Shown here: in pieces, positions 1,273 to 51,206 of the stretch
How positions within the stretch are numbered: position 1 is the first letter of the stretch
How the letters are laid out: each line of letters opens with the position of its first letter
DNA from: Escherichia coli
GTDB taxonomy: Bacteria; Pseudomonadota; Gammaproteobacteria; Enterobacterales; Enterobacteriaceae
Assembly: GCF_030384885.1 (NCBI RefSeq)
Contig: NZ_CP128613.1
DNA: 64,000 bases
Direction: 5' to 3' (one strand)
Position numbers and translations under genes: made by a program
Notes under the pieces: model-generated
What the model was told of the DNA's origin: nothing
Database searches by the model: none
Seen by the model: the letters and a program-made list of their open reading frames with translations, nothing else

Positions 1273-4597
<3,325 letters not shown>

Positions 4598-4811
4598 CGC
4601 GCACCTCGTGGCTGATTATGGACGGCGTTATTGGCAAAGTGGAACAAGACTCACTCCCGGGTCAGCAAACTCGAAAAATTGACGCTCCCATTATTTGTGC
4701 TTTCGTTTTTTTCTATCCGCCAATAAACCCGTTTTTTTGTTGCTATTTAGCGCCTTTGTCTTATTGACTTACTGGTAGGCTTTGCTACCAGAAATTATCC
4801 GGGAGATGAAA
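4598..4811. promoter_or_regulatory. Divergent fliF / fliE promoter region (flagellar class 2, FlhDC-dependent by established knowledge)
   Basis: 214-bp AT-rich interval between divergently oriented fliF and fliE; individual boxes not mapped. Confidence 0.5.
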
Positions 4812-5126
4812 ATGTCAGCGATACAGGGGATTGAAGGGGTTATCAGCCAGTTACAGGCTACGGCGATGAGTGCGCGTGCGCAGGAATCACTACCGCAACC
4901 GACCATTAGTTTTGCTGGGCAGCTGCATGCCGCGCTCGATCGCATAAGCGATACACAAACCGCCGCCCGCACGCAGGCAGAAAAATTCACCCTCGGCGAA
5001 CCCGGCGTGGCGTTAAACGATGTGATGACCGATATGCAAAAAGCCTCAGTTTCTATGCAAATGGGGATTCAGGTGCGTAATAAGCTGGTGGCGGCGTATC
5101 AGGAAGTGATGAGCATGCAGGTGTAG
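4812..5126 (+). CDS. fliE: Flagellar hook-basal body protein FliE
   Basis: 104-aa product [24 protein letters not shown]... from ATG at 4812; the track ORF 4782..5126 has a 10-codon upstream extension. Confidence 0.93.
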
Positions 5127-5470
5127 GTTTTGTAACCTGTTGACTATGCTTGTTTAATTATATCCGATCCCACAGCGTGGGGCATGGATGGGGCAAACTC
5201 ACTCAATTTCTGGTTTAAAATGGATACCTGATCCTGGTTGTTTTCTGCCATCCACGATCCGTAAACGCGATAAAATGTTTTGTCTTCGCTTTGCTCATAG
5301 GAAGAGTGAACTCTTTCGTTAGCCTGGGGTTCCTTCTGATCATTATTGTTCCTGCCTTTATCTCTTGCCACGCCAGAGCCCCCTGGATACACACACACCA
5401 GGATGAAAACGGTGAGTTGTGTTCAAACTGTAGTACAATTCTCTCCAGTATGAACAGGAAAGAATATGCT

Positions 5471-5803
5471 ATGAACCCTTATATTTATCTTGGTGGCGCA
5501 ATACTTGCAGAGGTCATTGGTACAACCTTAATGAAGTTTTCAGAGGGGTTTACACGGTTATGGCCCTCTGTTGGCACAATTATTTGCTATTGTGCATCAT
5601 TCTGGTTATTAGCTCAGACGCTGGCTTATATACCTACAGGGATTGCTTATGCTATCTGGTCAGGAGTCGGTATCGTTCTGATTAGTTTGCTTTCCTGGGG
5701 ATTTTTTGGCCAACGACTGGACCTGCCAGCCATCATAGGCATGATGTTGATTTGTGCCGGTGTGTTAGTCATTAACTTGTTGTCACGAAGTGCACCGCAT
5801 TAA
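5471..5803 (+). CDS. emrE: Small multidrug resistance (SMR) efflux transporter EmrE
   Basis: 110-aa product MNPYIYLGGAILAEVIGTTLMKFSEGFTRLWPSVGTIICY... inside track ORF 5291..5803; four hydrophobic segments; RBS-like aggaaag upstream. Confidence 0.85.
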   Translation: MNPYIYLGGAILAEVIGTTLMKFSEGFTRLWPSVGTIICYCASFWLLAQTLAYIPTGIAYAIWSGVGIVLISLLSWGFFGQRLDLPAIIGMMLICAGVLVINLLSRSAPH

Positions 5804-47018: not shown

Positions 47019-48680
47019 ATGATTAACCGTATCCGCGTAGTCACGCTGTTGGTAATGGTGCTGGGGGTATTCGCACTGTTACAACTTATTTCCGGCAGTC
47101 TGTTTTTTTCCTCCCTTCACCATAGCCAGAAGAGCTTTGTGGTTTCCAATCAATTACGGGAACAGCAGGGCGAGCTGACGTCAACCTGGGATTTAATGCT
47201 GCAAACGCGCATTAACCTGAGTCGATCAGCGGTGCGGATGATGATGGATTCCTCCAATCAACAAAGTAACGCCAAAGTTGAATTGCTCGATAGCGCCAGG
47301 AAAACTTTGGCCCAGGCCGCGACACATTATAAAAAATTCAAAAGCATGGCGCCGTTACCTGAAATGGTCGCTACCAGTCGTAATATTGATGAAAAATATA
47401 AAAACTATCACACAGCATTAACTGAACTGATTGATTATCTTGATTATGGCAATACTGGAGCTTATTTCGCTCAGCCAACCCAGGGAATGCAAAATGCAAT
47501 GGGCGAAGCGTTTGCTCAGTACGCCCTCAGCAGTGAAAAAATGTATCGCGATATCGTCACTGACAACGCAGATGATTATCGATTTGCCCAGTGGCAACTG
47601 GCGGTTATCGCGCTGGTGGTGGTAATGATTCTGCTGGTGGCGTGGTACGGCATTCGCCGTATGTTGCTTACACCGCTGGCAAAAATTATTGCTCATATTC
47701 GCGAAATCGCCGGTGGTAACCTGGCGAATACCCTGACCATTGATGGGCGCAGTGAAATGGGCGATCTGGCGCAGAGCGTCTCACATATGCAACGCTCTTT
47801 GACTGACACCGTCACTCATGTGCGCGAAGGCTCTGATGCCATCTATGCTGGCACCCGTGAAATTGCGGCGGGCAATACCGATCTTTCTTCCCGTACTGAA
47901 CAGCAAGCATCCGCGCTGGAAGAAACTGCCGCCAGCATGGAGCAGCTCACCGCGACAGTGAAGCAAAACGCCGATAACGCCCGCCAGGCCTCACAACTGG
48001 CGCAAAGTGCCTCCGACACCGCCCAGCATGGCGGCAAAGTGGTGGATGGTGTAGTGAAAACGATGCATGAGATCGCCGATAGTTCGAAGAAAATTGCCGA
48101 CATTATCAGCGTTATCGACGGTATTGCCTTCCAGACTAATATCCTCGCGCTGAATGCCGCTGTTGAAGCCGCGCGAGCGGGTGAACAAGGCCGTGGTTTT
48201 GCCGTGGTGGCGGGCGAAGTGCGTAATCTTGCCAGTCGCAGCGCCCAGGCGGCAAAAGAGATCAAAGCACTTATTGAAGACTCCGTTTCGCGCGTTGATA
48301 CCGGTTCGGTGCTGGTCGAAAGCGCCGGGGAAACAATGAACAATATCGTCAATGCTGTCACTCGCGTGACTGACATTATGGGCGAGATTGCATCGGCATC
48401 AGATGAACAGAGCCGCGGCATCGATCAAGTCGCATTGGCGGTTTCGGAAATGGATCGCGTCACGCAACAGAACGCATCGCTGGTGCAGGAATCAGCTGCT
48501 GCCGCCGCTGCGCTGGAAGAACAGGCCAGTCGTTTAACACAAGCGGTTTCTGCGTTCCATCTGGCAGCCAGCCCACTCACCAATAAAACGCAAACATCAT
48601 CTCGTCCTGCCAGTGAGCAACCACCGGCACAGCCACGACTGCGAATTGCTGAACAAGATCCAAACTGGGAAACATTTTAA
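47019..48680 (+). CDS. tar: Methyl-accepting chemotaxis protein II (aspartate/maltose chemoreceptor) Tar
   Basis: 553-aa product [30 protein letters not shown]..., C-terminal NWETF pentapeptide; the track ORF 46944..48680 has an upstream extension. Confidence 0.93.
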
Positions 48681-48725
48681 CGAGCATTGACTAACGCGGT
48701 CATTGCCGCCTGATGGGGAGCGTTG

Positions 48726-50327
48726 ATGTTTAATCGTATTCGAATTTCGACCACGCTGTTTTTAATTTTGATTCTCTGCGGGATCTTGCAGATTGGCAGT
48801 AACGGCATGTCTTTTTGGGCATTTCGCGATGATTTGCAACGATTGAATCAGGTCGAGCAGAGCAATCAGCAACGTGCGGCATTAGCGCAAACTCGGGCGG
48901 TGATGTTACAGGCCAGCACCGCGCTGAATAAAGCGGGCACTCTGACGGCGCTTAGCTATCCGGCAGATGACATTAAAACGTTGATGACGACGGCGCGCGC
49001 CAGTCTGACGCAATCCTCTACGTTATTTAAAAGTTTTATGGCGATGACTGCGGGCAACGAGCACGTCAGGGCGTTGCAAAAAGAGACGGAGAAAAGTTTT
49101 GCCCGCTGGCACAACGATCTCGAACATCAGGCGACCTGGCTTGAAAGTAATCAACTTTCGGATTTCCTCACTGCGCCGGTGCAGGAATCACAGAATGCGT
49201 TTGACGTTAACTTTGAGGCCTGGCAGCAGGAGATCAACCATGTGCTGGAAGCCGCCAGTGCGCAAAGCCAGCGTAACTATCAGATTTCGGCGCTGGTGTT
49301 TATCAGCATGATTATTGTTGCAGCGCTCTACATCAGCAGTGCGCTGTGGTGGACGCGCAAGATGATTGTTCAACCACTGGCCATCATCGGTAGCCATTTT
49401 GACAGCATTGCTGCGGGTAATCTGGCGCGTCCGATTGCGGTATATGGTCGCAATGAGATCACCGCCATTTTTGCCAGCCTGAAGACCATGCAGCAGGCTT
49501 TACGTGGGACGGTGAGTGATGTGCGTAAGGGAAGCCAGGAGATGCACATTGGTATCGCGGAGATTGTCGCAGGCAATAACGATCTCTCAAGTCGTACCGA
49601 ACAGCAGGCGGCATCGTTGTCACAAACGGCCGCCAGTATGGAGCAATTAACCGCCACGGTAGGGCAAAACGCCGATAACGCGCGACAGGCGTCGGAACTG
49701 GCAAAAAAAGCCGCCACAACGGCGCAGGCGGGGGGTGTCCAGGTCAGTACCATGACTCACACCATGCAGGAAATCGCCACCAGCTCGCAAAAAATTGGCG
49801 ACATTATCAGCGTTATCGACGGCATTGCTTTCCAGACCAATATTCTGGCGCTGAATGCGGCAGTGGAAGCGGCTCGCGCCGGAGAGCAGGGGCGTGGTTT
49901 TGCGGTAGTGGCAGGTGAAGTGCGCAATCTTGCCAGCCGTAGCGCCCAGGCGGCAAAAGAGATCAAAGGACTGATCGAAGAGTCTGTCAATCGTGTCCAG
50001 CAGGGTTCGAAACTGGTGAATAACGCCGCCGCGACCATGACCGATATTGTCAGTTCAGTAACCCGCGTGAACGACATTATGGGAGAAATTGCCTCGGCGT
50101 CGGAAGAACAACGGCGTGGGATTGAACAAGTTGCACAGGCTGTTAGCCAGATGGATCAGGTGACACAGCAGAACGCCTCGCTGGTAGAAGAAGCGGCGGC
50201 GGCAACGGAACAACTGGCGAACCAGGCTGACAATCTTTCGTCGCGCGTGGCGGCATTTACCCTTGAAGAACATGAAGTAGCAAGACATGAGTCGGCGCAG
50301 TTACAGATTGCGCCAGTGGTATCCTGA
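48726..50327 (+). CDS. tap: Methyl-accepting chemotaxis protein IV (dipeptide/pyrimidine chemoreceptor) Tap
   Basis: 533-aa product MFNRIRISTTLFLILILCGILQIGSNGMSFWAF...; lacks the C-terminal NWETF. Confidence 0.93.
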   Translation: MFNRIRISTTLFLILILCGILQIGSNGMSFWAFRDDLQRLNQVEQSNQQRAALAQTRAVMLQASTALNKAGTLTALSYPADDIKTLMTTARASLTQSSTLFKSFMAMTAGNEHVRALQKETEKSFARWHNDLEHQATWLESNQLSDFLTAPVQESQNAFDVNFEAWQQEINHVLEAASAQSQRNYQISALVFISMIIVAALYISSALWWTRKMIVQPLAIIGSHFDSIAAGNLARPIAVYGRNEITAIFASLKTMQQALRGTVSDVRKGSQEMHIGIAEIVAGNNDLSSRTEQQAASLSQTAASMEQLTATVGQNADNARQASELAKKAATTAQAGGVQVSTMTHTMQEIATSSQKIGDIISVIDGIAFQTNILALNAAVEAARAGEQGRGFAVVAGEVRNLASRSAQAAKEIKGLIEESVNRVQQGSKLVNNAAATMTDIVSSVTRVNDIMGEIASASEEQRRGIEQVAQAVSQMDQVTQQNASLVEEAAAATEQLANQADNLSSRVAAFTLEEHEVARHESAQLQIAPVVS

Positions 50328-50345
50328 AGTGATTGAGAAGGCGCT

Positions 50346-51206
50346 ATGACTTCATCTCTGCCCTGTGGGCAAACGTCTTTATTGTTACAGATGACCGAGC
50401 GCCTGGCGCTTTCCGACGCGCATTTTCGGCGGATAAGTCAATTGATCTATCAACGAGCCGGGATCGTCCTGGCCGACCATAAACGCGATATGGTCTACAA
50501 CCGATTAGTTCGTCGCTTGCGTTCGCTGGGACTGACAGATTTCGGCCATTACTTGAACTTGCTGGAATCTAATCAGCACAGCGGTGAGTGGCAGGCGTTT
50601 ATCAATTCGCTGACCACGAATCTGACAGCATTTTTCCGTGAGGCACACCATTTTCCTCTGCTCGCGGATCATGCCCGGCGTCGTTCTGGCGAGTATCGTG
50701 TATGGAGCGCGGCGGCTTCGACCGGCGAAGAACCGTACAGCATTGCGATGACACTGGCTGACACATTGGGCACCGCGCCCGGACGCTGGAAAGTGTTTGC
50801 CAGCGACATTGACACCGAAGTGCTGGAAAAAGCCAGAAGCGGTATTTATCGCCATGAAGAGTTGAAAAACCTGACGCCGCAGCAACTGCAGCGGTACTTC
50901 ATGCGGGGGACGGGACCGCATGAAGGATTGGTGCGTGTGCGTCAGGAGCTGGCGAACTATGTTGATTTTGCCCCGCTGAATTTACTGGCGAAACAATACA
51001 CCGTGCCGGGGCCGTTTGATGCGATCTTCTGTCGTAACGTCATGATCTACTTCGATCAAACTACCCAGCAGGAGATTTTGCGCCGCTTTGTTCCGCTCCT
51101 TAAACCCGACGGATTGCTGTTTGCGGGTCACTCTGAAAACTTTAGCCACCTTGAGCGCCGCTTCACGCTGCGTGGTCAGACGGTGTATGCGCTAAGTAAG
51201 GATTAA
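50346..51206 (+). CDS. cheR: Chemotaxis methyltransferase CheR
   Basis: 286-aa [45 protein letters not shown]... Confidence 0.95.

Follow-up and report, generated by a model that had tools for sequence, protein, structure and literature searches.

Conserved signalling-core repeat of the tandem chemoreceptor genes tar and tap of Escherichia coli and rare in-frame Tar-Tap fusions in natural strains

The paralogy of the chemoreceptor genes tar and tap, their conserved signalling core and the difference in the NWETF pentapeptide are textbook E. coli chemotaxis and are already known. The textbook case of concerted evolution of paralogs by gene conversion is E. coli tufA/tufB. Slocum and Parkinson reportedly described spontaneous tar-tap deletions in 1983. 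The pentapeptide acts as a tether for CheR and CheB (PMC4692393). Engineered or laboratory Tar-Tap hybrids are credited to Weerasuriya, Schneider and Manson (1998; J Bacteriol 180:914) in the citing passages of PMC2229510 and PMC7542364, and the loss of tap in phylogroup B2 and uropathogenic E. coli is credited to Lane et al. (2006) and Borziak et al. (2013) in those of PMC3559539 and PMC12623472. No report of natural Tar-Tap fusions or of conversion between the two genes was found in the literature searched, whose coverage is incomplete.

The tar-tap locus was analyzed in a 64-kb stretch of E. coli DNA, referred to here as the window. The following features were used:

47019-48680, plus strand: tar (MCP II, aspartate/maltose chemoreceptor), from the ORF and its translation, 553 aa
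48726-50327, plus strand: tap (MCP IV, dipeptide chemoreceptor), from the ORF and its translation, 533 aa
48663-48677, plus strand: codons of the NWETF pentapeptide (CheR/CheB tether), read from the translation; present in Tar, absent from Tap
48681-48725, plus strand: tar-tap intergenic spacer of 45 bp, from the sequence; absent from fusion alleles
47859-48359, plus strand: wider homologous cytoplasmic domain of tar (blocks D2 and D1), with tap partners at 49560-49727 and 49761-50060
48099-48270, plus strand: repeat copy 1, the highly conserved hairpin-tip signalling segment of tar
49800-49971, plus strand: repeat copy 2, the tap counterpart of the hairpin-tip segment, at an in-frame offset of +1701 bp
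48240-48267 (tar) and 49941-49968 (tap), plus strand: 28-nt run, exact and maximal
48098-48121 (tar) and 49799-49822 (tap), plus strand: 24-nt exact run, the crossover interval of the ET474/PEC389 fusion
47963-47980 (tar) and 49664-49681 (tap), plus strand: 18-nt exact run, the crossover interval of the ETEC4088 fusion

The two MCP genes adjoin head-to-tail on one strand. The window Tar matched the NCBIfam equivalog NF011622 with 1191 bits over residues 1-553 (full-length cut-off 900 bits), and the window Tap matched NF007309 with 1169 bits over residues 1-533 (full-length cut-off 903 bits). In Pfam, the order TarH (PF02203), HAMP (PF00672) and MCPsignal (PF00015) was recovered above gathering scores in Tar, Tap and the natural hybrid described below, all three of which are MCPs of the four-helix-bundle sensor class. 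Translation of both genes gave the C-termini ...DPNWETF for Tar and ...QIAPVVS for Tap, in line with the preliminary description, in which only Tar carried terminal NWETF. Among the four receptors, NWETF ends Tar and Tsr, on the high-abundance side, while the low-abundance Tap (...APVVS) and Trg (...SFATV) lack it. In the RefSeq record NZ_CP027579.1, 100% identical to the window, the gene is annotated 'tar'.

The preliminary description had proposed that the signalling segments of tar and tap are closely similar in DNA and form tandem repeats about 1.7 kb apart, and both statements held. Positions 48099-48270 share 148 of 172 nt (86.0%, ungapped) with the copy shifted by 1701 bp, and the same residue is encoded at 56 of the 57 codons. 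The copies are direct repeats on one strand, and their offset equals 567 codons and is thus a multiple of three. The bounds proposed for the tar copy stood, while the end given for the tap copy (49975) was 4 nt too long, the in-register end being 49971. The 28-nt run reported there, AGCGCCCAGGCGGCAAAAGAGATCAAAG, was likewise found to be exact; the window holds just two copies of it (48240-48267 and 49941-49968), and it is not extendable in either direction. An independent repeat search placed the segment within wider homology at the same spacing of 1701 bp, comprising 300 nt at 77% identity (48060-48359 and 49761-50060) and 168 nt at 73% (47859-48026 and 49560-49727), and a sliding-window identity profile also supported the wider block. 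Each of the three crossovers possible in the window is predicted to give an in-frame product of 535 aa.

The tar/tap identity lies trivially above chance relative to unrelated sequence, because the genes are paralogs. The preliminary description had allowed that its reading would be refuted if the identity were no higher than protein conservation alone predicts, and the answer depended on the null. Resampling with the protein and the gene-wide codon usage held fixed (codon-usage null) gave an expected identity of 77% (sd 2.5%), which the observed 86.0% exceeds (P<0.001, z ~3); identical codons numbered 33 of 56 against 22 expected, and a longest run of at least 28 nt had P = 0.006. The second, empirical null consisted of MCP pairs incapable of homogenization, namely tar versus the unlinked tsr and E. 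coli tar/tap versus Citrobacter and Enterobacter paralogs, and this null was not exceeded. Over the same segment these pairs showed identical-codon fractions of 0.48-0.62 and nucleotide identities of 80-86.5%. E. coli tar/tap reached 0.57-0.59, compared with 0.56 for tar/tsr, 0.48-0.62 for the cross-genus paralog pairs and 0.47-0.57 for orthologs; these cross-genus values come from Citrobacter and Enterobacter, the Escherichia outgroups E. albertii and E. fergusonii not being among them. The tar/tsr pair has a 28-nt exact run of its own (48311-48338). Two tandem tar/tap pairs lay outside the range, that of Citrobacter werkmanii at 0.35 and that of Enterobacter sp. Ag1 at 0.78. In a separate search of other genomes' contigs with Tap, the matches listed were mostly distant beta-proteobacterial MCPs.

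Codon-usage resampling as the sole null was discarded as insufficient, since the tsr, trg and cross-genus controls reach an equal level. For very conserved domains such a null inflates the evidence for conversion, and the proper control is provided by cross-genome paralog pairs. We provisionally attribute the excess to site-specific codon preference. An alternative to codon preference is that the nucleotide sequence itself has a function within the coding region, for instance in an mRNA structure or as a binding site common to MCP genes. An identical-codon fraction of 0.5-0.6 instead of the expected 0.39 recurs in essentially all MCP pairs, including cross-genus ones, and does point to some site-specific constraint; however, the shared codons vary from pair to pair in the alignment, with no single conserved element apparent, and Citrobacter tar/tap shows no excess (0.35). 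Such a function is accordingly a very improbable source of the additional synonymous identity.

A different reading is that ongoing gene conversion, that is, concerted evolution, keeps the tar and tap cores alike, with the 28-nt run as a recent patch; the preliminary description had likewise named the repeat as a substrate for conversion. The excess over the codon-usage null speaks for it, as does the way in which the 28-nt run arose. In K-12, tap differs synonymously at two sites within the run (GCG CAG GCA, versus GCC CAG GCG in the window), so that the run is interrupted and 24 nt is the longest tar/tap exact run. The two synonymous changes in the window tap relative to K-12 lie 6 nt apart (49946 and 49952), are both tar-like and thereby create the 28-nt run. 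The allele of the window is itself rare, strain 2013C-4282 being its only match at 100%. Of the 4,221 genomes with a best match of at least 95% identity, 4 carry the window type of tap allele at 100% and 2 others (not inspected) at 99%. Judged from these matches, the run appears to be intact in only 4-6 genomes and broken in nearly all E. coli. The clustered pair resembles a very short conversion patch, and drift fits it equally well. A micro-conversion reading of these two sites was considered and cannot be supported: the polymorphisms that separate the window from K-12 are scattered, point in both directions and form no tract, the window being the tar-like one at 10 sites and K-12 at 7.

The remaining comparisons within E. 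coli argue against conversion. Synonymous likeness of tar and tap within the genome (0.57-0.59) does not rise above that between genomes (0.48-0.62) or above tar/tsr, and the C. werkmanii tandem pair stands at just 0.35. The only pair with higher likeness within the genome was that of Enterobacter sp. Ag1. No long tract was seen in E. coli: the longest run measures 24-28 nt, and under the empirical null a run of at least 28 nt has P = 0.05-0.24. Two screens for converted chimeras in either direction, able to detect tracts from roughly 50 nt upward, revealed no segment-scale conversion allele in ~5,400 complete E. coli genomes, and the best match to fully converted chimeras, 93.3%, equaled the unconverted baseline. 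As the tandem pair is no more similar than pairs that do not exchange, nothing indicates conversion in E. coli, and, from the sequences compared, the process appears to have left no detectable trace in tar/tap of this species. In Enterobacter sp. Ag1, tar and tap share an 89-nt tract with one mismatch, including a 65-nt perfect run (P<=5.5e-4 under the empirical null). This is likely a conversion tract, which would mean that the process does occur somewhere in this gene pair. For E. coli, conversion is largely refuted for tracts of ~50 nt or more, and overall we regard it as an improbable explanation of the similarity.

The preliminary description had also proposed deletion between the repeats, giving Tar-Tap hybrids, and a screen of related genomes for such fusions. 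This part of the proposal was borne out in natural strains. Among 5,386 complete E. coli genomes, 3 were missing exactly 1701 bp at tar-tap, namely those of strains ETEC4088, ET474 and PEC389. Each of their fusion loci (L086-L088) consists of a single 1608-bp gene, in frame and encoding 535 aa, between cheW and cheR. In ET474 and PEC389 the crossover lies within the 24-nt run, with all 284 diagnostic sites consistent with one clean switch from tar to tap; in ETEC4088 it lies within the 18-nt run, with 283 of 284 sites in agreement. The junctions thus fall inside shared identity, as expected of deletion between direct repeats, in strains other than that of the window. The fusion allele of ET474, from a frog in China, is identical to that of PEC389, from a pig in Korea, and the two distinct alleles represent two independent events. 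As a side observation, copies of the junction region numbered 5,383 places in 5,381 genomes, which indicates one or two records with two copies.

The minimal efficient processing segment is ~23-27 bp, a length reached by the 28-nt and 24-nt runs and not by the 18-nt run. The 28-nt run, to which the preliminary description had drawn attention, did not prove to be a natural crossover site: none of the three fusion genomes has its crossover there, the natural junctions lying in the 24-nt and 18-nt runs, and K-12 has it in broken form. The lineage to which the window belongs yielded no fusion, and for the window itself the tar/tap repeat is of little consequence. The reciprocal product of unequal crossover, a tap N-terminus joined to a tar C-terminus, was found in 0 genomes when crossovers at tap positions 49660-49991 were screened.

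Short-read assemblies can collapse direct repeats, and all three fusion loci are annotated simply as 'tar', which might suggest that the fusions are artefacts of assembly or annotation. However, the repeat core measures only ~170 bp at 86% identity and its flanks are far more divergent, making collapse unlikely, and the assemblies are complete genomes. The same allele recurs in a frog isolate from China and a pig isolate from Korea, and the switch is clean at 283-284 of 284 sites. Moreover, the exact hybrid proteins recur in many independent assemblies, with 28 and 71 contigs carrying them and with 58 and 140 matching blocks in the collection (NCBI, ENA, Logan); every hybrid contig that was read showed the context cheW-hybrid-cheR. 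An artefact is therefore hardly conceivable. The plain label has another origin: with 1049 and 1004 bits against NF011622 the hybrids pass the Tar cut-off (900), while with 619 and 653 bits against NF007309 they fail that of Tap (903), so public annotation names them 'tar'. Surveys of chemoreceptor repertoires could miscount such hybrids.

Taken together, we consider it highly probable (roughly 0.9) that the repeat represents the conserved hairpin-tip core, which serves kinase control, in two old tandem paralogs, the tar and tap genes of the tar-tap-cheRBYZ cluster, and that it is subject to rare in-frame deletions. The protein is nearly invariant in the segment (56 of 57 residues), and codon choice at its sites is more uniform across MCP genes than gene-wide usage predicts. 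According to this model, these two factors together produce a DNA identity of ~80-86% in MCP pairs, whether linked or unlinked, and now and then an exact run of 20-30 nt. Ongoing homogenization of tar and tap, none of which is seen in E. coli, is not needed for the pattern. On rare occasions, crossing-over or slippage during replication between the direct copies would then remove the 3' portion of tar together with the spacer and the 5' portion of tap. The enzymology may be RecA-dependent homeologous recombination or RecA-independent slippage. The resulting hybrid derives its sensing domain, transmembrane segments, HAMP domain and first methylation helix from Tar, and the remaining cytoplasmic domain and tail from Tap, with the loss of NWETF. 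Wild strains do contain such products, with junctions in the longest runs of identity that these strains offer. The locus thus offers a worked example in which 18-24-nt islands of identity in ~85%-identical paralogs set the natural crossover points, and in which a prediction made from one sequence, checked in real genomes, holds for deletion and fails for conversion.

We would expect the hybrid to retain aspartate/maltose sensing, to lose the dipeptide taxis of Tap and to rely for adaptation on the NWETF of Tsr in trans; ET474 has kept tsr, whose product ends in NWETF. A more speculative and, in our opinion, rather unlikely extension is that the fusion alleles, with two events and dozens of public assemblies, represent recurrent, selectable remodeling of the receptor set and not neutral accidents, and that the rare lineage of the window, with its intact 28-nt run, is perhaps more prone to it than typical E. 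coli. If this were true, one step would abolish dipeptide taxis and equip the abundant aspartate/maltose sensor with a Tap-type signalling and adaptation module lacking NWETF.

The closest known system is E. coli K-12 itself, in which tar (b1886) and tap (b1885) show the same cheW-tar-tap-cheR order, protein lengths (553 and 533 aa) and domains, with NWETF on Tar only, at ~96-97% DNA identity to the window; it differs by the interrupted 28-nt run, 24 nt being its longest. Concerted evolution of the tufA/tufB type finds a likeness in the near-perfect 89-nt tract of Enterobacter sp. Ag1 tar/tap, but not in E. coli tar/tap, in which similarity within the genome is no higher than between genomes and conversion alleles are lacking. 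The commonest loss of tap, found in ~20% of complete E. coli genomes, is a 1374-bp deletion wholly inside tap between the short direct repeats GAATCAGG (13/15 nt match). This B2-type loss is another natural route to the absence of Tap at this locus; however, it is unrelated to the tar/tap repeat and leaves Tar intact with its NWETF. The architecture of the natural fusions is like that of the laboratory Tar-Tap hybrids: an N-terminal sensing module from Tar passes, within the conserved cytoplasmic domain, into a C-terminus from Tap that lacks NWETF. Unlike these, the natural alleles arose and persist in wild lineages (pig, frog and other sources), have their mapped junctions in the 24-nt and 18-nt runs and bear the public label 'tar'.

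The tar and tap genes of the window lie in tandem in the order motB-cheA-cheW-tar-tap-cheR-cheB-cheY-cheZ-flhB (43.4-54.6 kb, all + strand). The TarH, HAMP and MCPsignal domains were present in both proteins, and both passed the corresponding NCBIfam equivalog models, with 1191 bits for Tar (MCP II; cut-off 900) and 1169 bits for Tap (MCP IV; cut-off 903). The genes and the exact identity runs between them are listed below.

Genes and exact tar/tap identity runs in the window
47019-48680, + strand, tar, 553 aa, C-terminal NWETF
48726-50327, + strand, tap, 533 aa, C-terminal QIAPVVS
48240-48267 and 49941-49968, + strand, 28-nt exact run, maximal, exactly two occurrences in the window
48098-48121 and 49799-49822, + strand, 24-nt exact run
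47963-47980 and 49664-49681, + strand, 18-nt exact run

The preliminary description of a signalling-segment repeat containing a 28-nt identical run was correct. The hairpin-tip segment of tar (48099-48270) aligned without gaps to 49800-49971 of tap, with 148 of 172 nucleotides (86%) and 56 of 57 residues identical, at an offset of 1701 bp (567 codons). An independent repeat search of the window returned blocks of 300 nt (77% identity) and 168 nt (73% identity), both at this spacing. The repeat is a real but commonplace feature, known for a long time: tar and tap are tandem paralogs, and the repeated sequence is their conserved signalling core.

The stretch 47019-50327 was 100% identical to strain 2013C-4282 (NZ_CP027579.1), where the genes are annotated as tar and tap, and at most 97% identical to all other complete E. 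coli genomes. It is a rare and apparently mosaic allele: positions 48530-48930 were 99.8% identical to one genome set, the N-terminal part of tar was 99.1-99.4% identical to a second, distinct set, and 49900-49999 was 100% identical to a third. A query spanning the tar-3'/tap-5' junction matched 5,383 places in 5,381 genomes, i.e., one or two records have two copies, and a few tar-tap matches (2-4 places) fell in records labelled as plasmids. In NZ_CP080080.1 (1903557-1908064), tar is split into two annotated fragments by an IS5-like ISKpn26 insertion. In E. coli 23CRST038 (locus L003, 5001-5904), an IS1 element follows the first 195 bp of tar, the tap, cheRBYZ and flhBAE region is gone from this IS1 to near yecV/argS, and flhC contains an internal stop codon; motility is presumably lost in this strain. 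Conservation of a tandem pair of methyl-accepting chemotaxis protein (MCP) genes 5' of cheR reaches Yersinia aldovae (locus L014, 2147-3820 and 4001-5653), in which the upstream MCP has a Tsr-like periplasmic domain (62% identity to Tsr vs 34% to Tar) and the downstream one is weakly Tap-like.

The nucleotide identity of the segment was compared with two expectations. Under a codon-usage null, in which both proteins were fixed and codons were resampled from own-gene or neighbour-gene usage, the expected identity was 77% (sd 2.5%) vs the observed 86% (P<0.001), 33 of 56 codons were identical vs 22 expected (z about 3), and a longest run of at least 28 nt had P = 0.006. No clear excess over this null was seen in tar/tap outside the segment. 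The empirical null consisted of MCP gene pairs unable to have exchanged sequence in tandem. The identical-codon fraction in the segment was 0.57-0.59 for E. coli tar/tap, 0.56 for K-12 tar/tsr (2.6 Mb apart), 0.48-0.62 for paralog pairs taken across E. coli, Citrobacter werkmanii, Enterobacter sp. Ag1 and Y. aldovae (80-86.5% nucleotide identity), and 0.47-0.57 for orthologs from different genera. K-12 tar/tsr shares a separate 28-nt exact run, at the equivalent of 48311-48338, and with the identical-codon probability of the segment set to 0.50-0.62, a run of at least 28 nt had P = 0.05-0.24. Thus, the identity exceeds what protein conservation gives under codon usage, but not under the empirical null. 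Since the same excess occurs in pairs without tandem exchange, it is not a sign of exchange between E. coli tar and tap. Codon choice in the segment is more uniform than gene-wide usage predicts, and this is a trait of the whole MCP family. Gene-wide usage predicts an identical-codon fraction of 0.39 at identical residues, and nearly every MCP pair, including tsr, trg and outgroup genes, had 0.5-0.6 in the segment; the C. werkmanii tar/tap pair was an exception (0.35).

The repeat had also been proposed as a substrate for gene conversion, of which no trace was found in E. coli, either in polymorphisms between the window and K-12 or in chimera searches. Comparison of the window with K-12 gave 59 differing sites, scattered over the cytoplasmic halves of both genes; at 10 of them the window tap agreed with tar, and at 7 the K-12 tap did. 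Sites 49946 and 49952, the source of the 28-nt run, belong to this scattered bidirectional background. Few genomes carry the window-type tap allele: among 4,221 genomes with a best match of at least 95%, it was present at 100% identity in four and at 99% in two more. Chimeric queries (tap bearing the tar segment, and tar bearing the tap segment) were searched against about 5,400 complete genomes and revealed no converted alleles, the best full-length identity to either chimera being 93.3%, equal to the unconverted baseline. Two partial matches at 95-99% were probably Tar-Tap fusions of the type found in strain ET474. In Enterobacter sp. Ag1 (locus L008; tar 2291-3958, tap 4001-5605), the two genes share an 89-nt tract with one mismatch, equivalent to window 48156-48244 and including a 65-nt perfect run. 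The identical-codon fraction of this pair was 0.78. The shared tract (P≤5.5e-4, empirical null) is far above what any other pair showed and is likely a gene-conversion tract.

Deletion giving Tar-Tap hybrids, the other proposed outcome, was found in kind. A split query (tar 47450-47800 and tap-3'/cheR 50200-50550), whose halves were joined only if about 1.5-2.4 kb was missing between them, identified 3 of 5,386 genomes, each with a span of exactly 1,400 bp (3,101 minus 1,701): ETEC4088 (pig, Belgium), ET474 (frog, China) and PEC389 (pig, Korea). Their loci (L086, L087 and L088; 2070-3677 in each) carry a single 1608-bp gene of 535 aa between cheW and cheR, annotated as 'tar' and ending in the QIAPVVS of Tap, in which the equivalent of tar 47019-47980 or 47019-48121 is joined to tap. 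According to 284 sites distinguishing K-12 tar from tap, the switch was single and clean in all three hybrids. In ETEC4088 it lies between tar nt 944 and 963, the 18-nt run, and in the allele common to ET474 and PEC389 between tar nt 1079 and 1104, the 24-nt run on the left margin of the segment. The natural junctions were not those predicted. In the window, crossovers at the 28-, 24- or 18-nt run would each yield an in-frame 535-aa product. The two fusion alleles differ in their junctions and in the che alleles around them, which indicates that fusion occurred twice independently. Within the window's own lineage no fusion was seen, and a screen for the reciprocal product, with the N-terminus of Tap and the C-terminus of Tar, was negative for crossovers between tap 49660 and 49991.

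Searches for the exact hybrid proteins gave 28 and 71 contigs, and a public assembly collection contained them in 58 and 140 blocks. Every contig read had the order cheA-cheW-hybrid-cheR-cheB-cheY-cheZ; artefacts were ruled out by this recurrence and the constant cheW-hybrid-cheR context. The fusions remain unflagged and named 'tar' because their scores of 1049 and 1004 bits exceed the cut-off of the Tar equivalog model. In a draft assembly with the ET474-type hybrid (L094, 4127-4986), cheR is divided into ORFs of 210 aa and 89 aa, which is a frameshift or sequencing error.

The repeats are direct and in frame, and the junctions of the natural deletion products lie within the longest identity runs of their parental type. 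The minimal processing length for recombination is about 23-27 bp; the deletions may have arisen by RecA-mediated homeologous recombination at runs near this length or, in the 18-nt case, by RecA-independent slippage. Spontaneous tar-tap deletions arising through this homology were reportedly described by Slocum and Parkinson in 1983. Weerasuriya et al. (1998) investigated engineered Tar-Tap hybrids, according to citations in PMC2229510 and PMC7542364. The natural fusion alleles, a small by-product of this analysis, are possibly unreported. They retain the Tar periplasmic domain and transmembrane helices together with its HAMP domain and first methylation helix (sites 295, 302 and 309), while the second methylation helix and the tail are those of Tap, and NWETF is consequently lost. 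This motif, the CheR and CheB tether, can also work in trans from neighbouring receptors (PMC4692393), so adaptation of the hybrids should rely on Tsr, which in ET474 is intact and ends in NWETF.

The common route of tap loss is a different one, unrelated to the tar/tap repeat. The full tar-tap pair was missing from about 1,085 of 5,406 genomes (about 20% of complete E. coli). In the sampled cases (L001 and L002, 4208-4434), tar was intact and a tap remnant was left, K-12 tap nt 120-1493 having been removed by a 1374-bp deletion (window equivalent about 48845-50218) flanked by the direct repeats GAATCAGG, with 13 of 15 nt matching. The remnant also has a 1-nt frameshift. These genomes presumably belong to phylogroup B2, and the remnant agrees with published reports that B2 and uropathogenic strains have lost Tap (PMC3559539, PMC12623472).
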